Below are positions 1,611 through 25,467 of a stretch of 49,954 bases of DNA, in pieces. The position numbers were made by a program, and so were the translations under genes. The notes below the pieces were generated by a model that saw only the letters and a list, made by a program, of their open reading frames with translations, ran no database searches and was not told the DNA's origin. The stretch spans positions 2,475-52,428 of the forward strand of contig JBBDRK010000018.1 in assembly GCA_040905465.1 (NCBI GenBank). Reading direction: 5' to 3'. Position 1 is the stretch's first letter; every line of letters begins with the position of its first letter. This DNA is from Trueperaceae bacterium. GTDB lineage: Bacteria; Deinococcota; Deinococci; Deinococcales; Trueperaceae.

Positions 1611-2666
1611 ATGAACTGCTGCGACACCAGCCCGACCACTGCCGACCGATTCCGGAATCCGGTGGACCGCCGGACCGTGCTCAAGGGAATGGCGGGGACG
1701 GTAGCGGGACTGATACTCGGCGGTAGTGGTTTCAGTCTGGCCCAGAACCGCAAGATCCGGCTTGCCTTCTGCAGCCAGCTGCTATGCGTGGTCCCCTACG
1801 AGTTCACGCGCTCCCAGCGGTTCTTCGAGGACGAAGGTCTAGACGTCGAGTTGGTCTACACGCGGGGCGGAGGTGCGGCGTTGCAGGCGCTCGTGGGAGG
1901 AGCAGTGGAGTACGCCGCTACCTCATTCGATGCCGCGTTGCAGGCGTACAGCAACGGCGCCAAGATCCGGCGCTTCGCCACTACCGGGCGGCTGCCGCTA
2001 TTCGCATTGGCCACGGCTCCGCGCCGCGCGCAGGAGATCAACGAGTTCGCCGATCTCGCTGGCCGGACGGTGGGCGTCTCGGCGTTGGGAAACGGCGACC
2101 ACGTGCTGATGCTGTTCCTGCTCGAACGTGCCGGCGTCGACCCCGATAGCGTCGAGTTCGCCACCCTGGGCGTGAACCTCTACGACGCACTGCGCCTCGG
2201 TCAGGTGGACGCGGGCTGGGTGCAGGAGCCCTCCTTGACCCTGATCCGGGAGGCCGGCGGCGGCTTGCTGTTCAACGGCATGGACCTCGATCATGCCCGG
2301 CAGTACCTGGGCGGAGCCTACGAGTTCATGGGCGTGTCCGTGCGCGCGGACGAGCTCGAGCAGCGCACGGAAGAGATGCAGGCGCTTGGCCGCGCGCTGA
2401 GTCAGGGCCTGGTTGCCCTCAAGCAGGTGCCGGCGTCCGAGGTCGTGGCGGCGCTGCCCTCGGAGCTGGTAGCGGGCGGAAACCTCGCACAGCTCGAACA
2501 GATTCTCGAGGAACACCGTGACTCGCTCTATCCCGACACCGTGACGATCGATGTCAGCGCCGTCGAGCGGGTAGTCGAGTCCCAGCGGACCGCCGGTCTG
2601 CTCGAGCAGCCGGTGGACCTGAACGAACTGCTGGCCACCGGCGTGGTCGGAGGTAGCGGTGGCTGA
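1611..2666 (+). CDS. ABC transporter substrate-binding protein, NMT1/THI5/SsuA-like, Tat-exported
   Basis: RBS AAGGAG; twin-arginine signal DRRTVLK; FFEDEGLDVELV and LAGRTVGVS motifs; first gene of an ABC operon. Confidence 0.9.
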   Translation: MNCCDTSPTTADRFRNPVDRRTVLKGMAGTVAGLILGGSGFSLAQNRKIRLAFCSQLLCVVPYEFTRSQRFFEDEGLDVELVYTRGGGAALQALVGGAVEYAATSFDAALQAYSNGAKIRRFATTGRLPLFALATAPRRAQEINEFADLAGRTVGVSALGNGDHVLMLFLLERAGVDPDSVEFATLGVNLYDALRLGQVDAGWVQEPSLTLIREAGGGLLFNGMDLDHARQYLGGAYEFMGVSVRADELEQRTEEMQALGRALSQGLVALKQVPASEVVAALPSELVAGGNLAQLEQILEEHRDSLYPDTVTIDVSAVERVVESQRTAGLLEQPVDLNELLATGVVGGSGG

Positions 2667-3423
2667 TCCGATGCTGAGGGTCAGCGGCCTGACCCTCGGA
2701 TACGGTGGCGAGCCGGTATTGGCGGGTGTCGATCTGAGCGTCGCCACCGGCGAGTTCGCCAGCCTGGTGGGACCGTCGGGCTCGGGCAAGAGCTCGGTAT
2801 TGCGGGCCATTACCAACCTGCAGAAGCCGGAGGCCGGCGACATCGACCTGGGGATCGACAGCGAGCACTTGGGCATCCTCTTCCAGGACGACGCGCTGCT
2901 CCCCTGGCGCACGGTCCTCCAGAATGTGGCGCTGGGCCTGCTCATTCGCGGCACCGGTAAGGCGGCGGCAAACGAGCGGGCCGATACCTGGCTGCAGCGC
3001 CTGGGGCTGGAGGGCCTGAGCGACCGCTTCCCTCGCCAACTGTCCGGGGGTCAGCGAAAGCGGGTGGCTCTGGCTCAGGTGCTCGCGCTGCAGCCGCGTC
3101 TCCTGCTGATGGACGAGCCCTTCGCCTCGCTCGACGCCATCGTGCGCAGGCGCATTACCGAGGACCTGCTGCGCTGGGTGGAACGCGAAAGGCTGACGGT
3201 GCTGATGGTCACGCACGACCTCGAGGAGGCCCTGAGCCTGTCTGACACCGTGCACCTGCTGTCACGCGGCCCTCGCGCTCATGTCAGGGAGAGTTACCAG
3301 GTTCCGATTCCGCGGCCGCGCGATCTCGTCGAGGTACGCGCCCACCCTGCCTTCACGCCGCTCTTGCGAAAGCTGTGGGACGGCCTGGCGGACGAGGTCG
3401 AGCCGAGGCTGGTGACGGCGTGA
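2659..3423 (+). CDS. ABC transporter ATP-binding protein (TauB/SsuB-like)
   Basis: Walker A GPSGSGKS, signature LSGGQ, Walker B LLLMDEP, VTHD. Confidence 0.95.
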   Translation: MADPMLRVSGLTLGYGGEPVLAGVDLSVATGEFASLVGPSGSGKSSVLRAITNLQKPEAGDIDLGIDSEHLGILFQDDALLPWRTVLQNVALGLLIRGTGKAAANERADTWLQRLGLEGLSDRFPRQLSGGQRKRVALAQVLALQPRLLLMDEPFASLDAIVRRRITEDLLRWVERERLTVLMVTHDLEEALSLSDTVHLLSRGPRAHVRESYQVPIPRPRDLVEVRAHPAFTPLLRKLWDGLADEVEPRLVTA

Positions 3424-5972: not shown

Positions 5973-6068
5973 GTTCGAAAGTGACCGCTACCGCCGCCCG
6001 GCAGCGTGCGAAACGCATCATGGAGGGCACGGCGGCTCCGGGCCTGTGCCCGCCGTCGCGGGGGGACT

Positions 6069-7241
6069 ATGCGAAAGATGCTGGCCGTTGCAGCGCTCGC
6101 GGGTCTGGCAGGGCTGATAGTCCTGCAGGCGCTGGCACTGCGCGACAGAGAGGCCGCTCCTTCGGCGGATAGGTCGGAAGCGGCGCTAGATGACACGGCG
6201 GCGGGTGCCGGATGGCAGGAACGGGTTTTGGAATCGGCCGAACGGCTGGGAATAGAGCCGGCGTTTCCTGATGGCTCGTTCATATCCGACCAGGGCGCCA
6301 CCGGCTATCAACTTGCCTACCTCATCGACAAGATGCTGGCGGCGGCGGATGAGCGTTCGCGCTGCGTCGAAGCCGACTTCGGATATCCTGACCCCACCTT
6401 CAGATTCGAGGATATGCCCGAGGACCACTGGGCAAGGCCGGCGGTCGAGCGGGCGGCCCGGCTGGGGGTACGCGATGCGTTTCCGGAAGGAGAGTTCGAC
6501 GGCAGCGAGTACCTCAGCGGCTTTCAGGCGTTGATGCTGGTAACCCGAGCGATGGAAACGGTCGACACCCGGCTGCTGTGTGGCGCCGTTGCGGGCGGTG
6601 GCGCGGCCGGCGCAGCGGCGGCCGAAGGAGTGCAGCCGGCGAGCAAGAGCCTGGAGATCGGGGGCCAGGCACTGCTAGAGCTGCAGGAGCGGCTCGAGCA
6701 GAGCCTCTTCGCTCGTCTGGATACGCGGCTGGCGGAGATGCGGCCCGAGCTGTCGGCGGAGATACGCCGAGCCCTTAGCGCGCAGGTGGAGGATCTGGTG
6801 GCAAGCTCTGTGCCGGACCGCTCGGGCGTGCCCGGGCCGCCGGGCCCGCCAGGAGAACCCGGCCCGCAAGGGGAACCGGGTCCGCCTGGCCCAGAAGGCG
6901 TGCCGGGTACAGAGGGACCTCCGGGACCGCAAGGCGCGCCCGGTCCCGAAGGTCCAGCCGGCCCAGAAGGGGCTCAGGGCCCGCAAGGCGTCCCGGGCCC
7001 GGAAGGCCCGGCCGGCCCGCCAGGGCCCGCAGGGGACGAGGGACCTTCGGGACCACGAGGAGAACCCGGTCCGGCTGGACCGCCGGGCGAACAGGGACCG
7101 CAGGGTGCCCCCGGCGATGACGGCAAGGACGGACGAGACGGGAAGGACGGAAAAGGCGGGAAGGACGGCGTGCCGACGCCGGACCGCGACAGAGACCGAG
7201 ACCGCGATGATGACAAAGACGACGATGACAAAGACGATTGA
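6069..7241 (+). CDS. Secreted SLH-domain protein with coiled segment, collagen-like triple helix and acidic tail
   Basis: Signal peptide [12 protein letters not shown]…; SLH-like [21 protein letters not shown]…FPEGEFDG plus a second degenerate copy; 39 G-X-Y triplets; DR/DK-rich end. Confidence 0.85.
6825..7175 (+). repeat. Collagen-like (Gly-X-Y)39 coding repeat
   Basis: Uninterrupted G-X-Y from GVP GPP GPP to GKD GVP. Confidence 0.9.
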
Positions 7242-15903: not shown

Positions 15904-16185
15904 TTACGCCCTGCGGTGAACGTCGGGGCTTTCGAGCGCGCGGAGCTCGCCGTTCGTCGGTTCTCGAACGATTTCGGCGACGTCCTCGCCGAGCGTAACG
16001 GCGATGCGACGCAGCGTCAGCGCATATGGGTTGAAGCGCTTATCGAGTCGGCCCATCTCATATCGCTGGTATGACCGAACCGAGATGCCGAGCTTTTCCG
16101 CGACATCCTCCTGCCGCAGGCCCCTCGAGAGACGCGCCATGCGAATTCTCTTTCGGACCACGGCAAGGTAGGCCTCATCCGTCAC
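15904..16185 (-). CDS. XRE family HTH transcriptional regulator (paralog 2)
   Basis: LRQEDVAEKLGISVRSYQRYE; clear duplicate of 15373..15669. Confidence 0.88.
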   Translation of the reverse strand: MTDEAYLAVVRKRIRMARLSRGLRQEDVAEKLGISVRSYQRYEMGRLDKRFNPYALTLRRIAVTLGEDVAEIVREPTNGELRALESPDVHRRA

Positions 16186-16237: not shown

Positions 16238-16483
16238 GTTATGCGTAATTTCAAGCTGTGAGGTGCTGAATGACCTGAGCCCGTCATGTTGCTTCGTCCG
16301 CTGCCCTTCGTGCCGTCTCTCGCCAATGGAAGCCCAACCCGGGCGCCACGCGGTCTCTTGCTTCGCAAGGCCAGGACCGTCCCCCAATAGGCGAGGCCAA
16401 TCGGGTCGAGCGCCCGCGTTGGGTCAACCTGAGCTTACTTCAAATTGGTTTGTCGGCGCTCCAAACCTCCCTTGGGAGGTTCT

Positions 16484-18931
16484 ATGCATGCTCGAAGTGC
16501 ACTAGTCGTGCTGAGGGTGGTGGGCGCTGTCCTCGTGCTGTCCGTGGCAATCGCCCAGTCCGAGGACCGTCGTCGCTTTACGGTGGATGATCTTCTGTCC
16601 TTGCAGGCTCTCAACAAGGTAGTCCCCTCGCCCGCTGGCGACCTGATCGCCGTGGTGATCCAGCGTCCCGCGCAAGGAAACGGACCCGCAAACGAGAACA
16701 TGTTCTCGAACGACCGTGCGGACATCTGGCTCATCTCGGCAGAGTCGGGGGAGATAGAAAACCTCACCGACGGCACTGGTCGTGACAGTTACTTCAGCCC
16801 GCTATGGTCCCCGGACGGACAGCGACTCGCCATGCTTTCGACGGAAGGGAACGACGGCATCAGGCTCTATGTTTGGGACAGGTCGGGCGACTCGCTCAAG
16901 CGCCTGACGGAGCAGAGCGTGGATGTCGAGGCGAACTTCGGCGGAAGGAGCCTCTTCGACCGAGTGTCAGCAGTATGGCTGAACGACAGGGAACTCCTGA
17001 CCGTCCTCCTGCCTGTTGGTGAGCTGCCGGTCGATTACTTCACGTCCAATCCCCAAGGTGTGATCGTCCCCAAATGGGAGGCGACACAGGCCGGCCTCGA
17101 GCCGTCAGTAAGCGTCCTACACAGTAACGTGGGCAGCCCCGAAGACTGGACGCTAGAACGAACAATGGTGCGCATTGACGTCGAGAGCGGCGACATCACG
17201 GAGTTGACGAAAGGCGAAATTCGCGTGGTGAGCCTTTCACCCGACGGCCGGCGCGCGGCTATCATCACAGTCTCTGGACCCGATGAGCTTCCTGTCGAGG
17301 GAGGCCTGCCCTTCCCGCCAGGTTGGAACGTCTACACCTGGCGACCTTACGTGCACACGAAGCTGGCGGTCCTCGAACTCGAGGGCGCTGGCGAACTCAC
17401 CTGGTTTCCCGAGGTAGTCGATCCCAGCATTTTCACCTACAGGAGCGACCTGCAATGGTCGCCAAGCGCGGATTCACTCGCCGTCCTTGTCGAACGTGAC
17501 GAGAGCGCTGCCGGTCGCGCCCTCTTTCGGATCGACGTCAATGCAGCGGAAGCCGATCCCATCGGGGTCGGCGCGGCTAACATCTCGTCGTTCGCATGGT
17601 ACGGGGACGAACTTCTTTTGAACGTCGACGGGGATTGGCAGGTTGCTGCCCGCTCCGCAGAAGCGGCAGGCGGTGACTACGAGGATTTACCGCAACAACT
17701 TCGCGGCTTTGGAGCCGGCGGGCTCGCGGGGGTCAGCGACGACGACTTCTTTCTGCTCGGAGCGTCGGGTCGACTGACTAATGCAACAGAAGACTTCGCG
17801 CCCGCCATCCAGCGGATCATCTGGCCTTCAGCTACCAGCACCGACTCGAGCGGCGAATGGATACTCGGCACGTCGGACGGCATGTATCATGCGCTTGCAG
17901 AAGGCGATGCACTTCGCCTGAGCCCCGTCAAGTCCCCCGACGCCGCGGCCAGCTTTCTGGCTTACGCGCCGCCCAGCCAGACCGCAGTCTTCAATAAGTC
18001 CGATCCTGATGGGGACTACCTTTGGTCGGGTAATCCGCATACCGGCGATTACATCAATACGCTCTCCCTGAATACTCATCTGGCGCGAGTCGAGGACGCC
18101 GAGCGCATCCTCATCTCATACGAGAACGATGACGGCCAGCCGCTCAAGGGGCTCGTGGTGCTTCCCAAGGACTACCAGGAAGGGCGAGCCTACCCGCTAA
18201 TCGTCACCCTCTACACGGGCAGCGTGGTTCGAGACGAAGCCTACCGGCCGGCAAGCAAAAACCAGTCGCGCCTCTATCACCCGCTGCTCTTTACAGCGCG
18301 CGACTACGCTGTCCTGTACCCGAGCATTCCGCTGCCCAGCACTTCTGGGCCGATAGACCCGCTTTCAGAACTGAGCAAGAACGTATTGCCGGCGGTGGAC
18401 GAAGTTGTTCGCTTGGGCGTCGCTGACTCTGAGCGCATCGGCCTGTTGGGACACAGCTACGGAGGCTATGCCGTGGTCGGACTCCTCGGGCAGACAGAGC
18501 GCTTCAAGGCCGCTATCGCTTCTGCCCCATTCGTGGATCTCGCTGCCTACAACGATATGATTCCCTTCAAGCTGCGCTACTTCGACTTGGCCGCAGAATT
18601 GAGCCTGGTTTACTCGGCCGAGTTCGAGAACCCCAATGCCGTCCTGCGGATGGGAATCAGGCCGCAGCAGGATCCGGAACAGTATTCGCGCAATAGCCCG
18701 CTAGTCTACGCTGACCGCATCGAGAGTCCGCTCATGCTGATTCAGGGCGATCTGGATCCAGTGCCGATGGCGCAATCTGAGGCGCTATTCAAGCGTCTCA
18801 GACGCCAGGGAAACGAAGCGATGCTCGTGCGCTACTGGGGGGAAGGACACGTCATAATGTCGCCCGCCAACATAAGAGATGTGTTGGAGCGCATCTTCGG
18901 GTGGTTCGACACCTATCTCGGCGACGAGTGA
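16484..18931 (+). CDS. Secreted S9 prolyl-oligopeptidase-family enzyme; probable lasso peptide isopeptidase (AtxE2-like)
   Basis: RBS GGAGG; signal peptide; beta-propeller region with SPDG repeats; triad GHSYGG (Ser), QGDLD (Asp), GEGH (His); adjacent to lasso genes. Confidence 0.85.
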   Translation: MHARSALVVLRVVGAVLVLSVAIAQSEDRRRFTVDDLLSLQALNKVVPSPAGDLIAVVIQRPAQGNGPANENMFSNDRADIWLISAESGEIENLTDGTGRDSYFSPLWSPDGQRLAMLSTEGNDGIRLYVWDRSGDSLKRLTEQSVDVEANFGGRSLFDRVSAVWLNDRELLTVLLPVGELPVDYFTSNPQGVIVPKWEATQAGLEPSVSVLHSNVGSPEDWTLERTMVRIDVESGDITELTKGEIRVVSLSPDGRRAAIITVSGPDELPVEGGLPFPPGWNVYTWRPYVHTKLAVLELEGAGELTWFPEVVDPSIFTYRSDLQWSPSADSLAVLVERDESAAGRALFRIDVNAAEADPIGVGAANISSFAWYGDELLLNVDGDWQVAARSAEAAGGDYEDLPQQLRGFGAGGLAGVSDDDFFLLGASGRLTNATEDFAPAIQRIIWPSATSTDSSGEWILGTSDGMYHALAEGDALRLSPVKSPDAAASFLAYAPPSQTAVFNKSDPDGDYLWSGNPHTGDYINTLSLNTHLARVEDAERILISYENDDGQPLKGLVVLPKDYQEGRAYPLIVTLYTGSVVRDEAYRPASKNQSRLYHPLLFTARDYAVLYPSIPLPSTSGPIDPLSELSKNVLPAVDEVVRLGVADSERIGLLGHSYGGYAVVGLLGQTERFKAAIASAPFVDLAAYNDMIPFKLRYFDLAAELSLVYSAEFENPNAVLRMGIRPQQDPEQYSRNSPLVYADRIESPLMLIQGDLDPVPMAQSEALFKRLRRQGNEAMLVRYWGEGHVIMSPANIRDVLERIFGWFDTYLGDE

Positions 18932-18995
18932 AGCCGGGGCCGAACAAAAGGCAGGGTCAAATAGTACTACTAGAGGGCATAATCCAACAACTTGA

Positions 18996-19022
18996 AGAGG
19001 CGGGGAGATTTTCCCCGCCTCT
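18996..19022. terminator. Stem-loop between the convergent isopeptidase and precursor genes
   Basis: agaggcgggga-gattt-tccccgcctct: perfect 11-bp stem, 7 nt after the precursor stop. Confidence 0.75.
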
Positions 19023-19029
19023 ACTCGGC

Positions 19030-19128
19030 TCACAATCGGAAGCTGATGGATTCGGTACTACCTTCAACATCCCCGCGGGTCAAGCGGAGCGCTGAACCGA
19101 AGCAAATGAGTGTCGGTTTTACGTACAT
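19030..19128 (-). CDS. Lasso peptide precursor MYVKPTLICFGSALRLTR-GDVEGSTESISFRL (32 aa; not in the ORF track)
   Basis: Strong RBS AAAGGAGGTG; YxxPxL RRE-binding motif; Gly and Thr(-2) leader hallmarks; core Gly1 with Glu8; directly downstream of the cyclase and followed by a hairpin. Confidence 0.92.
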   Translation of the reverse strand: MYVKPTLICFGSALRLTRGDVEGSTESISFRL

Positions 19129-19160
19129 GTTTCACCTCCTTTCCACCAGCCTTGGTCACG

Positions 19161-20969
19161 TTACCGTCGTACGCCGGTCGCGGACCGGCGGCTGGGCAGA
19201 TTCGTCGGGTCGTCCTTGACGAAACGCGAGAAGAACCAGCGTTCGTCTGCGAGGATGTAAACGATTTCTGCATCGCGAGAGAGCCGGCCGTCCCGGAACG
19301 CCTCGGCCAACTCTCGCATGCGCTGCGCCTCGAGGACATTCAACTCGGCCAGAATCGGCTCGCGGAGCCAAGCACTGACGTTCGGCCAATTGGCTCGGAT
19401 CCCGAATGCGTAGGCTTCCGTAAAACCGGTTTTCAGTTTGCGCTCGAGAATGGCCTGCGGGAGTCGCCCGCTCATGGCCTCTCGCAGCACCCGTTTGCCG
19501 ATCCCACCGCCTGCCTTCAAGGCCGCCGGCGTCGCGAGCGCGTGCTCTACGAGCGGCCTGTAGAGGAAGGGGTAACGAAACTCGACCGCAAGCCGTGGCT
19601 GCTGCCGTAGACCCGGTTCGGTCGAGCGAAGGAAATTGACTGCGTCCAGGTTGCCATCTGCCTGCCTGGCGACGCTGGTTGACAGTGCATGCTCCATGGC
19701 CCGAGCCTTGCGCGCAACCTTTGCGGAGGCCCATGGGAGCCTTGCGACCGGAATGCGACCTGGCAGCAAGGTGCTCTTCGCGACCGACCAAAACGGCTTC
19801 TCGCGCGCGTCACCCCACATTCGCAACTCCCGGTAGGCACTGAGGAACCGGCCCTCCTGCAACAGCTGCCGCGCCGCACCCACGCCGCCAGTCATCGTGC
19901 CGTCACTACCGTGTCCCGACAGAACTATGCGACAACCTGCCGGCAACGACTGATACAGTCCGACGCGGACCCCGAACAGGACGTCCTGAGTCGGCTCATC
20001 GAACATCGTCGGCAGGCAGAGCCCGGAGTCTGCTCCGCCTGGCTCATGGTGCTCGGCGTACACCCGCTTCCATGGGCGAGATCCTACCAGCGGACGGCTG
20101 AATTCACGCTCGTCCACCGTCGGCCATGCGTCCGACACGATCGAGAGGGCGAGGGGCACTGTGCCGAGGCTCAATGCAGTCGCGTAGATGCTCGTAGAGT
20201 CCATACCGCCCGAGACGTCGCATCCGATCTGGCCCCGCCCACGCAAGGCAGCCTGAACCGCTTGATCGAGCAGCGCTCGTGTCCGCTCCGCGGCCTCCGC
20301 GGTTTCCATACGCTGGTACCTGACCGGCAACTCGTAATATCTCCAGAATCGCGCCGGCTTCCCTGGTTCCGCCACTACCGATTCGCCCGGCATCAGCCGC
20401 TTAACGCTCCTATACGGTGTCAAAGTAGTAGGCGGCACGAGTGCTGCGAGCTGAAGCAGAAAGTAGTCGCGGTCCAGGTGCGCGCCAACCCGGGGGTGGG
20501 CCGTAAGAGCGCCGATTTCGGAGGCCATCGCGAACAAACCGTTGGACTCCGCGAAGAAAAGCGGCCTCACTCCAAACCGATCCCGAAACGCCAACACTCG
20601 CTCGCCATCCCATGCGATCACGGCGAAATCGCCTTCCAGCTTGCTTGGCGCGGTATCCCCCCACTTGGCGATAGCTGCAGCCACCAGTTCGGCTTCCGAT
20701 GCTTCATTGTTCATGCCGAGCGATGCTTCCAGATCTGGGCGGTTGTCCAACCGCGCATCGGCCGCCACCGTTACGTTGCGCACGGTTACAGGTTGATGCC
20801 CGTCCTCCGGCAGCGTGTCGAGCCTGGCGCAACCTATCGTCAGGGGACCCAAGGTGAGACTGTCACTACCGTCGGGCGCGCGCGACTCAAGCGCCCGCAG
20901 CATTGGCGCGAGTGCACCGGACCCCGCCTGGCTTGATGTGAGTTCAAGGATTGCGGCAATGCCACTCAT
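19161..20969 (-). CDS. Lasso peptide cyclase (C protein, asparagine synthetase-like)
   Basis: AsnB fold with N-terminal MSGI (no glutaminase Cys); SGGMDS ATP-PPase motif; RYPFL; coupled to B1/B2. Confidence 0.93.
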   Translation of the reverse strand: MSGIAAILELTSSQAGSGALAPMLRALESRAPDGSDSLTLGPLTIGCARLDTLPEDGHQPVTVRNVTVAADARLDNRPDLEASLGMNNEASEAELVAAAIAKWGDTAPSKLEGDFAVIAWDGERVLAFRDRFGVRPLFFAESNGLFAMASEIGALTAHPRVGAHLDRDYFLLQLAALVPPTTLTPYRSVKRLMPGESVVAEPGKPARFWRYYELPVRYQRMETAEAAERTRALLDQAVQAALRGRGQIGCDVSGGMDSTSIYATALSLGTVPLALSIVSDAWPTVDEREFSRPLVGSRPWKRVYAEHHEPGGADSGLCLPTMFDEPTQDVLFGVRVGLYQSLPAGCRIVLSGHGSDGTMTGGVGAARQLLQEGRFLSAYRELRMWGDAREKPFWSVAKSTLLPGRIPVARLPWASAKVARKARAMEHALSTSVARQADGNLDAVNFLRSTEPGLRQQPRLAVEFRYPFLYRPLVEHALATPAALKAGGGIGKRVLREAMSGRLPQAILERKLKTGFTEAYAFGIRANWPNVSAWLREPILAELNVLEAQRMRELAEAFRDGRLSRDAEIVYILADERWFFSRFVKDDPTNLPSRRSATGVRR

Positions 20970-21361
20970 GGCGTGGCCTCGACGTCCCGAACTATCGGTA
21001 GGCTCTCAACCAGCGCTGTGAATTCGCGCCTCACAGCTTGTCGGTCACTCAGAACCTGCCCGTCGCACTCGACCCAAGCGTGTGCCGCGAACGGGAAGCG
21101 CCGAACGGCGATCACCAGGGACACCGGGTATCCGCGCCGCCTAAGCAAGCGGGCGATGGCGATGGCTTGGGGCAGACAACGCGCGCCCGGGCGGTAATAG
21201 AGCGCTGCCGCCTGCACCTGTCGAGCGCACATTCGCATCGATCGCATTTCGGCTGAAGTGACCTCTCTGTTGCAGCAGTCCGGTAGGCTCGCTACCACTC
21301 GCTGGACTCCTCGCGTCAGGACGTCGAGGTCTGCCCGCACGAGGGCAAGATATGAAGTCAC
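20966..21361 (-). CDS. Lasso peptide leader peptidase B2 (transglutaminase-like)
   Basis: RCLPQA catalytic Cys; PFAAHAWVE His motif. Confidence 0.93.
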   Translation of the reverse strand: MTSYLALVRADLDVLTRGVQRVVASLPDCCNREVTSAEMRSMRMCARQVQAAALYYRPGARCLPQAIAIARLLRRRGYPVSLVIAVRRFPFAAHAWVECDGQVLSDRQAVRREFTALVESLPIVRDVEATP

Positions 21362-21636
21362 GACTTGCCGCGTTGCAGGAGCCCAACGCGTTGCAGGTCG
21401 TGCAGAAGGGACCGCATGTCGCTTGAAACGACGTCAACGGAAACTTCATAGTCCTCCGAAATCTTAAGTACCGTCGCCGCTAGGTCGTCGTGCTCCAGGG
21501 CGCGCCAGATGCGAACCCCAATGTCGTCCAACCCGAAGTACTGGCCGTTGGGCGATATCAGTAGGAGGCTTTCGCCGTCGGCCGTCACCCGAACGTCGTG
21601 CGGTATCGTCCAACTGCCGGTTTCATCTGCTGTCAT
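21358..21636 (-). CDS. Lasso RiPP recognition element B1 (PqqD family)
   Basis: YFGLDDIGVRIWRAL…YEVSVDVVSSDMRSLLHDLQRVGLL PqqD/RRE pattern; 92 aa. Confidence 0.92.
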   Translation of the reverse strand: MTADETGSWTIPHDVRVTADGESLLLISPNGQYFGLDDIGVRIWRALEHDDLAATVLKISEDYEVSVDVVSSDMRSLLHDLQRVGLLQRGKS

Positions 21637-21742: not shown

Positions 21743-22498
21743 CTAGCGCCAATCCGGTTCCCCTGTCTTCAGTTCGCATGCGGGGAACGGAATCAGGCCA
21801 TCGCGGATTGCGCAGAGGACCGCCGTGATCCTATCCGGTGCTCCGAGCTTGTGCCGAACGTTCATGACGTGCTGCTTTACTGTGTTCTCCGAGATGTTCA
21901 ACTGGCCGGCGACGCGCTTTATCCGCTGTCCGTGCGCCAGTGCCTCGAGAACCTCCAGCTCGCGGGGCGTCAGCAGCCTTCGTCGCGTGGCAGGACTACC
22001 TGCTGTTTCCAACTGGTCGGCGGCAAGTACGATACCCGCGCTGAACCGGGCCGGATCCGTCAACCTCGTGCCCCCGGGAGGCGTGATTCGCCAGTGCCCG
22101 ACCCTTACGGCGTCGAGAGAACGCTCCCGCGTCAGGAGCACGGGTACGAGCGGGTTCGCAGCAGCCCAAGCGAGGGCGACTGGTTCTGAACAATTGTCGA
22201 TGATGAGCAGTTCCGCTTCCAGCCACCGGGGTACACCCGAGGTGGCAAAAACCGGGCAGCGCTCACTGAGTACGCTCAGAAAAGCCGGCTCCCCTACGCA
22301 AGCGACGGTCGGAAAGCGGACGTTGATGCTTTCGGCGCGGTTGACGCCAGCTTCGTGCCGATCGGTTTCCCGTCGATCCCAGCCCATAGCAGCCCCCTGC
22401 CATACCAGGACAATTAGGAGAGTCCGGCATCCTGCGGCAGCCGCCGAGCGTTTGACGGATGCCGGCAGATTCTGCCGGCGCTTGTCACGCCTCTTCAA
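21743..22498 (-). CDS. LuxR/NarL C-terminal HTH transcriptional regulator (start uncertain, possibly ATG 22387 or later)
   Basis: LTPRELEVLEALAHG…ISENTVKQHVMNVRHKLG; degenerate receiver-like N-terminus. Confidence 0.85.
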   Translation of the reverse strand: MKRRDKRRQNLPASVKRSAAAAGCRTLLIVLVWQGAAMGWDRRETDRHEAGVNRAESINVRFPTVACVGEPAFLSVLSERCPVFATSGVPRWLEAELLIIDNCSEPVALAWAAANPLVPVLLTRERSLDAVRVGHWRITPPGGTRLTDPARFSAGIVLAADQLETAGSPATRRRLLTPRELEVLEALAHGQRIKRVAGQLNISENTVKQHVMNVRHKLGAPDRITAVLCAIRDGLIPFPACELKTGEPDWR

Positions 22499-22653: not shown

Positions 22654-22929
22654 TTAGTCACGGTCTTCCAGTTCCCGTAACTCGTTCTCCGAAGGTGGCC
22701 GCAGCAGGTCCGCCAAGTCGATTCCAATGGCCATCGCAATTTTGTAGAGGGACTTCAATCGGGGATCCGAGACGTCGGATTCTCGCGCCTCGTACCGCTG
22801 CAGGATACGGACGTCGGCCGGGATCTTTCCGGCAACGTCTTCCTGGCTTAGCCCTCTGGTACGGCGCGCCTGCCTGATCCGCAGCCTGATGACGTCGAAA
22901 AGTAGGCGAAAAGCTGCATCATCGGCCAC
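22654..22929 (-). CDS. XRE family HTH transcriptional regulator (paralog 3, diverged)
   Basis: RIRQARRTRGLSQEDVA…LQRYE…DPRLKSLYKIA…P..NELREL, aligns with paralogs 1 and 2. Confidence 0.85.
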   Translation of the reverse strand: MADDAAFRLLFDVIRLRIRQARRTRGLSQEDVAGKIPADVRILQRYEARESDVSDPRLKSLYKIAMAIGIDLADLLRPPSENELRELEDRD

Positions 22930-23022: not shown

Positions 23023-25467
23023 GTGTGGCTCGAACGGCGGCTAGACCGGATCTGGCGCCATGACGCCGTGATCTTGAATGCGCCTCCGAAGATGGGGGTG
23101 CATAGGCTGATTTCTGCCGCTGCCGGTGATGGGCCGCTGGCATGGGTGGTGCTGGAAGCAACTGATCGAGGAGACCCGATCGCCCAAGGCATCAAGCTGT
23201 CGGACGGCCTGGCTGTCGCGGTGGGAAGCCGGCTGTTCCCGCGTGCTACCCCGGTCAATGCTGGCCTGGGATTGCTCAGGCGCTATCTTGATGCGCTGCG
23301 CCCGATTACGCTCGCACTTTCCGGCGTGGGAAACGGCGTGGAACTCGCAGCCGGCCTCATCGCCCTTCGGGCTCCGGACTGCCGCGTTTTACTGAGTGAC
23401 GACGCGATCTCCCTATCTGCGCTTACCGAACTCGCCGGATGTTCCGGCGCTCTGGTCCTCGACGAAGAAGCCCTCCGCCTGACCATGGTCGAAGCGAAGG
23501 TCGAGACTGCTGGACACGTTTCGGACGCGGATCTGCGGCGTCACCTGGACGAGACGGGCCATGCTTATGAGAGCTTACTGGTTCGGCTCGGAACGTCATA
23601 CGGCGACGCCATAAGTTCGGATCCGACTGCCGGCGGTCCCGACGTCACACCGGACCTCGAGATCGACATTCTGCTCGAGGCAGGCGAGTGGAGAGAGGCG
23701 GCTGAGTTGGCCGTGCGCAAGGCCTCGGCGAGGGCTCCCATGGTACTGCGGGACGTCGCCCCCATGTTCCATGAGCATGGTCTGCACCGAGCACTGTGGC
23801 GCCTGCTCGAACAGATTTCCAGCGAGGTTATTCGAGACGACGAGATTCTCTATTGGGAACTGACCGCCGCCGTAAGGTTAGGCAAGCAGCACGAGGTTCG
23901 CGATGTCGTGGAGGCGCGTCTCGCAAGTCGCGAGGCACCGGATCTGCGCGCCCTCCACGCGGGCGTGTTCCTGGACGTTGGGGACGCACGCCTGGAGGTT
24001 GAACGCGCATATCGAGCCCGGCAAACGGCCTTCACGGCTTATCAGTATGGACGCGTCCTGGCGAATGCCCGCGAGGGTGCGAGGATCCTCAAGGGGGCAG
24101 TGCGACTGGCAGAGGGCAGTGGGAGAGAGTACGACGTAACGCGCAACGCCAGCGCCTTGACGGCCCGACTGATCGATTCCGGTGAATATTCGCAGGCGGC
24201 GAGCTGGGGAGAGTGGGCGTTGGCTCGCTTCGACCGGCTGGAGTTGAGCAACACCCAGCAACGGCTCTACATCCTCAACAACTGGGCGTACGCGCGCCTA
24301 TTGACAGGCGAATCCGTCGGGTTGGAGGGGCTGCTGCGCGAGGCAGAGCAGGAGCTAGCAGGCGCATTCCCGGGCCTCAGGGCGCAGTTCCGCTCGACAC
24401 TTGGGGACTTTCTACTGGCCATGGACCGAGCCGATGAGTCGCTCGAGTACTACCAGACCAACTACGAAGAGGCACCCCGGAAGATGAAGGGAATTCGCGC
24501 GCTGAACCTGGTGAGAGCACTGTTGGAACAGGCTCCGGAGGAAGTCAAGTACGCGCGCGCGATTGCGAATGAGGCCTACGCCCTGAGCAGCATAGACGGA
24601 TGGGACTACCACCGCTCGGCTGTTCTGGCGTTGGGAATGGTGCTTGCGGTTTGCGATCCATACTCCGCCGAAGAGCATCTGACGCAAGTTCTCCGGAAAG
24701 AGCACGTCGCGTTACCGGTACCCCAGCACGTGCAGGCGACGCTGTACCTCGCATGCTCCAAGTTGGCGCTGGGCGAGTCGGAGCAGGCGCGGTCGCTAGT
24801 TGAGGGTTGCCCCAACGGCCTGAAATTCCTCACCGCGACCGGACTCCGACTGCTCGCCGGGCCGCCGGCGCGATTTCGTGAACTCTGGTCCTGGTGTAGC
24901 GGCAACTCGCCGACTCTCGAGCTTCGCTTTATGGGTCGCCGGGAAGTCCTCGTCAGAGGCGAGACGGTGTCTTTGGGCCTCCAGGCTTGTACCTTGCTGG
25001 CGCTTCTATCGCAATTTCCGCGAGGGCTGACTGCGACGCAACTGCTGTCCCACCTGAAGTACGAGAGCAGGAACTCGGCCGCACTCTACGCGGCCCTCTC
25101 CAAGCTCCGTCAACTGGTGCCGATCTCCGCGCCGCCTTACCGGCTCGAGGTGGACGTCACGGCCGACTTCATAGAAGCGCCGAAGTTGCTCCGTGACGGC
25201 CGGCTTCGCAGCGCGCTGGAACTCTACCGCGGTCCGCTGCTCGAGGAATCCGACGCGCCCGGAATCGTCGACCTGCGATCTTTCATCGACGAATCGTTCC
25301 GCCAGGCGACTCTTGTAGTTCACGATCCCGAGGCGAGCATGGCCCTTGCCCAACGGGTTGGTGATGATCTGGAGCTTTGGGAGCATGCCCTGGATTCGTT
25401 GAATTCGAACGACCCTCGGGCCCTCTTGGCGAGGGCCCGAGTTGCGCAGCTTCGTCGCGAGTACTAG
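23023..25467 (+). CDS. Large TPR-like regulator with C-terminal wHTH/BTAD-like region (MalT/SARP-related)
   Basis: Degenerate P-loop (NAPPKMG), helical repeats, C-terminal LELRFMG…LYAALSKLR…ALELYRGPLLEESDAP. Confidence 0.75.
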   Translation: MWLERRLDRIWRHDAVILNAPPKMGVHRLISAAAGDGPLAWVVLEATDRGDPIAQGIKLSDGLAVAVGSRLFPRATPVNAGLGLLRRYLDALRPITLALSGVGNGVELAAGLIALRAPDCRVLLSDDAISLSALTELAGCSGALVLDEEALRLTMVEAKVETAGHVSDADLRRHLDETGHAYESLLVRLGTSYGDAISSDPTAGGPDVTPDLEIDILLEAGEWREAAELAVRKASARAPMVLRDVAPMFHEHGLHRALWRLLEQISSEVIRDDEILYWELTAAVRLGKQHEVRDVVEARLASREAPDLRALHAGVFLDVGDARLEVERAYRARQTAFTAYQYGRVLANAREGARILKGAVRLAEGSGREYDVTRNASALTARLIDSGEYSQAASWGEWALARFDRLELSNTQQRLYILNNWAYARLLTGESVGLEGLLREAEQELAGAFPGLRAQFRSTLGDFLLAMDRADESLEYYQTNYEEAPRKMKGIRALNLVRALLEQAPEEVKYARAIANEAYALSSIDGWDYHRSAVLALGMVLAVCDPYSAEEHLTQVLRKEHVALPVPQHVQATLYLACSKLALGESEQARSLVEGCPNGLKFLTATGLRLLAGPPARFRELWSWCSGNSPTLELRFMGRREVLVRGETVSLGLQACTLLALLSQFPRGLTATQLLSHLKYESRNSAALYAALSKLRQLVPISAPPYRLEVDVTADFIEAPKLLRDGRLRSALELYRGPLLEESDAPGIVDLRSFIDESFRQATLVVHDPEASMALAQRVGDDLELWEHALDSLNSNDPRALLARARVAQLRREY

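Follow-up and report, generated by a model that had tools for sequence, protein, structure and literature searches.

Gene content of the locus

The window, by which we mean the whole stretch of 49,954 nucleotides that was analysed (Trueperaceae bacterium, contig JBBDRK010000018.1), carries a group of closely spaced minus-strand genes that form a standard split-B class II lasso peptide cluster. In the direction of transcription, these are the genes for a RiPP recognition element (B1; 21358..21636, 92 aa), a leader peptidase (B2; 20966..21361, 131 aa), and a lasso cyclase (C; 19161..20969, 602 aa), followed by a small open reading frame (ORF) of 32 codons and a TGA stop (19030..19128, minus strand) that is, with high probability, the gene for the precursor (A) of a small lasso peptide. 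This last gene was recognized from its reading frame and translation, a match to a leader motif, homologous ORFs in related genomes, and the variation at third codon positions. B1 and B2 overlap by 4 nt, as do B2 and C. The operon order is B1-B2-C-A, with the precursor gene in the last place; in lasso operons, A usually comes first.

All three biosynthetic enzymes are present and, judging from their predicted proteins, look intact. The B1 protein matched the PqqD model above the Pfam cut-off (9.8e-12), and the solved structure nearest to its profile was the lasso recognition element TbiB1 (5v1u, 1e-12), with TfuB1 (6jx3) at 6e-5; against the NCBIfam lasso_PqqD models, it scored below the cut-offs (34 vs 80 bits). 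Three JGI metagenome proteins (P0014–P0016) share 67–76% identity with B1. The B2 protein matched Transglut_core3 (3.6e-26) and passed the lasso B2 model NF033537, with 87 bits against a cut-off of 33. Its residues Cys62, His94, and Asp106 are invariant in the four orthologues (4/4), and their spacing is presumably that of the McjB triad. The cyclase contains the Asn_synthase (2.8e-30) and GATase_7 (2.5e-19) domains, and its best NCBIfam match was the lasso isopeptide-bond-forming cyclase model NF033535 (1.8e-69), at 235 bits, which is under the 525-bit cut-off of that model. The SGGMDS sequence at residues 253–258 of the cyclase is invariant in the four orthologues.

Upstream of B1 lies a gene for a LuxR/GerE-type regulator (21743..22498, minus strand; GerE, 2.1e-16), the start codon of which is uncertain; a GerE gene also occurs 5' of B1 in one sibling locus (G001:C6). 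This is followed by a gene for an Xre-type helix–turn–helix (HTH) protein with an HTH_3 domain (22654..22929, minus strand), homologues of which are encoded near all three sibling loci. Divergent from the Xre gene, on the plus strand, is a gene for an 814-aa protein (23023..25467) that has no Pfam or NCBIfam match. Over residues 239–814, this protein is 51% identical to the product of a gene beside the cluster of G002 (L025:8135-9844), which occupies the same position there, and it may be a regulator. Downstream of the cluster, on the plus strand and convergent to the precursor gene, is a gene for an 828-aa S9 peptidase (16445..18931) with an N-terminal hydrophobic segment, a propeller domain, and an alpha/beta-hydrolase domain. 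The lasso cluster and the S9 gene together are flanked by two similar Xre-type HTH proteins, the one of 91 aa mentioned above and one of 93 aa at 15904..16185 (minus strand), and homologues of these bracketing proteins are also found near the sibling clusters.

The Pfam scan of the long-ORF set, which extended over most of the window, revealed no kinase, methyltransferase, or other tailoring gene, and the scanned ORFs around the cluster included neither an exporter nor an immunity gene. An ABC_tran protein was seen in one place only, at 2659..3423, approximately 16 kb away, beside an NMT1-type binding protein.

The probable precursor gene and its leader motif

The precursor ORF is on the minus strand, whereas the initial annotation of this DNA had given no strand, and translation of 19128..19030 yields MYVKPTLICFGSALRLTRGDVEGSTESISFRL. 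The leader occupies codons 1–18 (19128..19075, minus strand) and the core occupies codons 19–32 (19074..19033, minus strand), with the TGA stop at 19032..19030 (minus strand). The ATG begins 32 nt past the stop codon of the cyclase gene and is preceded by the Shine–Dalgarno region AAAGGAGGTG (19133..19142, minus strand), in which GGAGG (19139..19135) lies 6 nt 5' of the start codon. This region also includes an in-frame TGA two codons 5' of the ATG, so that the frame from stop to stop has only 33 codons and the leader cannot exceed 18 residues. The GGAGGTG sequence of this site is invariant in the DNA alignment of the four orthologous loci.

Eight nucleotides past the precursor stop begins a GC-rich hairpin of 11 bp with a 5-nt loop (18996..19022, minus strand). 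Its folding energy was –23.5 kcal/mol (z = –4.63), and none of 200 shuffled sequences was as stable. The scan for consensus terminators did not flag this hairpin because fewer than five T residues occur in the eight bases past the stem, that is, because its T-tract is weak. It is probably the terminator between the two convergent genes.

The leader matches the pattern Y(-17)xxP(-14)xL(-12)xxxG(-8)xxxxxT(-2)x exactly: Tyr2, Pro5, Leu7, Gly11, and Thr17 fall at positions -17, -14, -12, -8, and -2, and Gly and Glu follow at +1 and +8 of the core. The YxxPxL motif, which covers positions -17 to -12 of lasso leaders, and the Thr at -2, the usual recognition element, are described in a paper on BsfA (PMC10368454), and a review places the YxxP motif and the conserved Leu in the cleft of the recognition element (PMC6784204). 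The leader studied here consists of Met plus the recognition segment from Tyr-17 to Thr-2 and its following residue, and nothing more. In a six-frame scan, the precursor site was the sole match to Y..P.L...G.....T. in the window. In 300 dinucleotide-preserving shuffles, the mean number of matches per window was 0.017 and at least one match occurred in five of the 300; the mean fell to 0.0033 when a small residue at +1 and Asp or Glu at +7 to +9 were added to the pattern. The initial annotation had proposed a compact lasso precursor with an 18-aa leader and a 14-aa core, and this description was upheld by the ORF and its translation, the signals around it, the register of the motif, and the presence of B1, B2, and C beside it.

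Conservation next to orthologous cyclases

A search for the cyclase covered the genome of the window together with 60 relatives, 61 genomes in total. Of these, 41 gave matches at E ≤ 0.001, but near-full-length matches (42–44% identity, E 2e-134 to 2.7e-128) occurred at three places only, in two other genomes, all within the window's genus; the next best match after these orthologues stood at 1.9e-33. The orthologous loci therefore comprise four cyclase copies, including that of the window, from three genomes of one genus. Two further observations were made among the more distant matches. One contig of G002 carries three tandem cyclase-like (AsnB-like) matches (G002:C39:64911-71914), and another contig of the genome from which the window derives carries a second AsnB-like gene (G000:C47:2841-3764), with 34% identity over residues 66–361.

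Immediately downstream of all four cyclase copies is an ORF of 32–34 codons that has only one possible start codon and carries a GGAGGTG site, the shared leader, Gly at +1, and a divergent core. The small ORFs of the three sibling loci have 34 codons and a leader of the form M-S-Y-x-x-P-x-L-I-R-F-G-x-A-[LI]-R-[IV]-T-L, followed by Gly and a core that differs from that of the window. B1, B2, and C are syntenic in every locus where the contig allows the comparison. The initial annotation had tied its proposal to the conservation of the ORF next to orthologous cyclases, and the ORF is kept next to four of four, with a conserved leader and Gly at +1, a variable core, and Asp or Glu at core position 8.

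The pattern of substitutions among the four loci points to a translated sequence. Of the 18 codons from Y-17 to G+1, 16 vary at the third position, nine at the first, and five at the second, and the differing codon pairs include 43 synonymous and 35 nonsynonymous ones. That the changes in the leader fall mostly at third positions indicates that the precursor frame has been under purifying selection. In each of the four loci, the opposite strand of this stretch likewise carries an open frame; taken together, the codon pattern, the leader motif, and the ribosome-binding site favour the sense frame over it.

A contig scan with the cyclase alignment recovered two G001 contigs only, and scans of metagenome contigs with the cyclase alignment and with a three-sequence precursor alignment found no relative. 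Among the DNA runs, X1, which is the probable source, covers the precursor, and X2–X4 hold fragments of the cyclase/B2/B1 region. No natural variants of the peptide were seen in the four runs, of which X2–X4 have no coverage of 18950..19500, and no RNA run was listed as containing the locus.

The wider precursor family

A profile built from the four peptides and searched against 1.84 billion representative proteins gave 11 matches at E ≤ 0.001. Ten of these share the build of the four peptides at 32–34 aa in length, and one of the ten is identical to the G002 peptide; the remaining match, a protein of 1095 aa at 1.1e-4, was left out of the family. Small proteins from relatives, identical or similar to the ones described here, are present in public predicted-protein sets. 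The four loci and nine of the database proteins (P0003–P0011), the latter without genomic context, were combined in an alignment of 13 sequences. This alignment shows no variation at Tyr, Pro, Leu, Gly(-8), Thr(-2), or Gly(+1) and hardly any at Phe(-9). The claim in the initial annotation that the leader opens with YxxPxL and has Thr at -2 was therefore confirmed in its exact register, with both elements invariant in 13 of 13 members.

The core is variable within a recognizable plan. Position 8 is Asp or Glu in 12 of the 13 sequences. In the exception, P0009, core positions 7–9 lack an acidic residue and only Asp10 is present; this protein is an inactive variant or else the precursor of a peptide with a 10-residue ring, which would be unusual. 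Just ahead of the final one or two residues, all 13 sequences have a bulky pair ([LF] then [QRKEL], or A then [FY]), which in the window is Phe12-Arg13.

A search of 364 genomes from the phylum with the profile of the 13 sequences gave strong matches (E ≤ 1.2e-15) in three genomes of the window's genus only, together with five weak matches at E 7e-4 to 8e-3. In the window's own genome, the family profile found exactly one site. Leaders across the family have 18–19 residues, consisting of Met, or Met and one further residue, and then the motif. In two other lasso loci of the Trueperaceae (L006 and L018), which the leader pattern also recovered, the first Tyr lies 6–13 residues past the start, which makes the bare-motif leader a feature of the genus-level family of the window. 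The putative precursors of these two loci (L006:377-502, minus strand; L018:3112-3261, plus strand) have the form YxxPxL...T-x and are located downstream of a cyclase-like gene, again last in order, and T-x would be followed in them by Glu or His, not Gly.

Predicted product and alternative readings

The acidic residues of the core are Asp2, Glu4, and Glu8, of which Glu8 alone falls within positions 7–9. Structurally characterised lasso rings have 7, 8, or 9 residues according to a 2026 review (PMC13352647), and the Gly1–Glu8 macrolactam is therefore the only ring of characterised size that this core can form. Because no tailoring gene was seen in the cluster, the product would be unmodified. 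Reading the core in this way, we consider the most likely product to be a 14-residue class II lasso peptide that is acidic and unmodified, with a Gly1–Glu8 ring and a mass of 1477.705 Da. The mass of about 1477.70 Da ([M+H]+ about 1478.71) calculated by hand in the initial annotation was reproduced on recomputation (1477.705 Da and 1478.712), and the computed [M+2H]2+ of the cyclised core is 739.860. Overall, we assign a probability of roughly 0.87 to the reading in which the ORF serves as gene A, the precursor gene, in a minimal split-B lasso operon B1-B2-C-A with the product proposed here.

Under this reading, the precursor would be translated from the same transcript as B1, B2, and C, with its own strong ribosome-binding site, and the hairpin would close the transcript. 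By analogy with the known pathway, B1 would bind the 18-residue leader; B2, as a Cys-His-Asp peptidase, would cut after Arg(-1); and the cyclase would adenylate the side chain of Glu8 and join it to the amine of Gly1, producing an 8-residue macrolactam. The six-residue tail, SISFRL, would be threaded through this ring, with Phe12 and Arg13 as the putative plugs.

The first of these steps was also addressed by structure prediction. The predicted complex of B1 with the precursor, for which alignments prepared in this work were used, scored 0.48, against 0.01 for the best control, with at least 79% of the contacts in agreement between runs and a partner pLDDT of at least 54. Of 157 solved complexes, 116 reached the mark set for this score, as did two of 215 mismatched pairs; only 18 of the 157 reached it with a score of 0.60 or below, and both of the passing mismatched pairs were in that range as well. 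The prediction thus weakly supports the binding of the leader by B1, and its pass may only reflect likeness to the solved complexes of recognition elements with leaders (TbiB1, TfuB1).

The precursor may be real and the Gly1–Glu8 macrolactam may form, and yet the product may be branched-cyclic or easily unthreaded and not a stable lasso, should the six-residue tail and Phe12/Arg13 fail to lock the 8-residue ring. The tail of six residues is short, and in several family members the place of Phe12/Arg13 is taken by no more than Leu-Gln, Leu-Glu, or Leu-Leu; on the other hand, a bulky pair before the last one or two residues has been kept in 13 of 13 sequences. Known peptides with rings of the same size provide examples in both directions in the 2026 review: caulosegnin I unthreads on heating, with the flanking residues deciding stability, whereas in benenodin-1 the 8-residue ring is held between Glu14 and Gln15 (PMC13352647), so that both outcomes are possible for a six-residue tail. 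Huascopeptin, cited as the smallest lasso peptide, has a Gly1–Asp7 ring (PMC9784485), which also argues against the unthreaded form. We regard such a form as unlikely.

A different register is a further alternative, with cleavage at another site or with an acidic residue other than Glu8 taking part in ring closure. Asp2 and Glu4 are also present in the core, and one homologue (P0009) has only Asp10. However, closure on residue 2 or 4 would give rings much smaller than those of 7–9 residues that have been characterised (PMC13352647), core position 8 is acidic in 12 of 13 sequences, and all 13 have Gly+1 and Thr-2 at a fixed distance from YxxPxL, which makes another register very improbable. Finally, a chance open frame in GC-rich intergenic DNA, with the true precursor elsewhere or missing, might be suspected in a window that has 64% GC and is full of spurious ORFs, and where the opposite-strand frame is open in all four loci as well, but with an expectation of 0.017 motif matches per window, the ORF, ribosome-binding site, and leader kept in four of four loci with mostly third-position changes, and exactly one site for the family profile in the window's genome, this reading is close to refuted and retains hardly any probability.

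Comparison with known lasso systems

The minimal lasso operon proposed here most resembles the split-B clusters with YxxPxL leaders, such as those of fusilassin/fuscanodin (TfuB1), the Thermobaculum Tbi system (TbiB1), paeninodin, and chaxapeptin, with which it shares a PqqD-type recognition element, a transglutaminase-like B2, and an AsnB-like cyclase. It also agrees with them (PMC10368454, PMC6784204) in the Tyr-17, Pro-14, Leu-12, and Thr-2 of the leader, in a core with Gly1 and an acidic residue at position 8, and in having no tailoring gene. It differs from these systems in the position of the precursor gene at the end of the operon, in having no ABC exporter near the cluster, and in its Trueperaceae host. 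A further difference lies in the leader, which has only 18–19 residues in the window's family, whereas the 2026 review gives lasso leaders as generally 20–40 aa and cores as 13–33 aa (PMC13352647). With 14 residues, the core falls at the short end of that range, as the initial annotation had stated.

A close counterpart in size is huascopeptin from Streptomyces huasconensis, which is likewise a very small class II peptide with a Gly1 start and a short tail; its ring is formed between Gly1 and Asp7, unlike the Gly1–Glu8 ring predicted here. Huascopeptin reportedly has 13 residues, and the window core, at 14, would be near the size record but not below it.

Our literature search found no work linking lasso peptides with Deinococcota or Truepera, although Tietz 2017 (RODEO) and Kretsch 2023, or their supplements, may list the family, and a 2014 genome-mining table has no lasso entries for Deinococcus-Thermus. 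The precursor is new, but it is an ordinary member of a well-known lasso class; what is unusual is the size of the leader (18 residues) and core (14 residues), the order with A last, and the new host. The locus leaves the understanding of lasso biosynthesis unchanged. Its value is practical: it is a concrete and cheap target of four genes that span approximately 2.6 kb and for which a product of 1477.705 Da is predicted. A natural leader of 18 residues used with a split-B system would be useful for the engineering of minimal leaders and for cell-free lasso libraries, and the 13-member family provides natural core variants on one scaffold.

The convergent S9 peptidase gene

The S9 peptidase encoded next to the precursor gene resembles the S9 lasso isopeptidases AtxE2 and SpI-IsoP in its general architecture, a propeller joined to an alpha/beta-hydrolase, and in its location beside a lasso cluster. 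Its best NCBIfam match was in fact the model of the Atxe2-family lasso isopeptidases (NF033523, 2.5e-28), with 99.3 bits against a cut-off of 400. In sequence, it was closer to the S9 carboxypeptidase 8wt1 (1.5e-22) than to AtxE2 (6.5e-6), and the same was true of its fold: in a Foldseek search with the predicted model (mean pLDDT 85.2), 8wt1 occupied ranks 1–6, SpI-IsoP rank 14, and AtxE2 rank 30. It is not co-located with the sibling clusters. A search of the 60 related genomes gave no homologue at E ≤ 1e-20; from JGI metagenomes, two proteins (P0019 and P0020) with 70% identity to it were recovered. An assignment as a lasso isopeptidase was not supported, given the family score under the cut-off, the closer relationship to S9 carboxypeptidases in both sequence and fold, and the lack of conserved co-location. 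A functional link between this neighbour and the peptide has a low probability.

In the three sibling loci, the gene convergent to the precursor gene encodes a family-5 solute-binding protein (SBP_bac_5) of 596–615 aa (L023:3166-5013, minus strand; L024:2497-4344, minus strand; L025:2886-4676, plus strand). The convergent neighbour thus varies among the loci, yet it is a peptide-handling protein each time.

One speculative reading would connect these neighbours with the lasso operon. A naturally minimal lasso system, with a bare-motif leader, a core of 14–15 residues, and no exporter, might have its peptide handled outside the cell by a variable convergent partner, in a circuit of the astexin type in which the peptide is made and then recaptured or degraded; we think this distinctly improbable. 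The partner would be the secreted S9 peptidase in the window, possibly a distant isopeptidase-like lasso hydrolase, and the family-5 peptide-binding protein in the siblings, a division of roles to which we give the same slim chance. If it were true, an astexin-type lasso circuit would exist in Deinococcota; isopeptidase-linked lasso clusters are placed mainly in alpha-proteobacteria in the 2026 review (PMC13352647).

Elsewhere in the window, a 411-aa ORF (6006..7241, plus strand) matched the Pfam model of the collagen triple-helix repeat (4e-16) and adjoins a SprT-like ORF.
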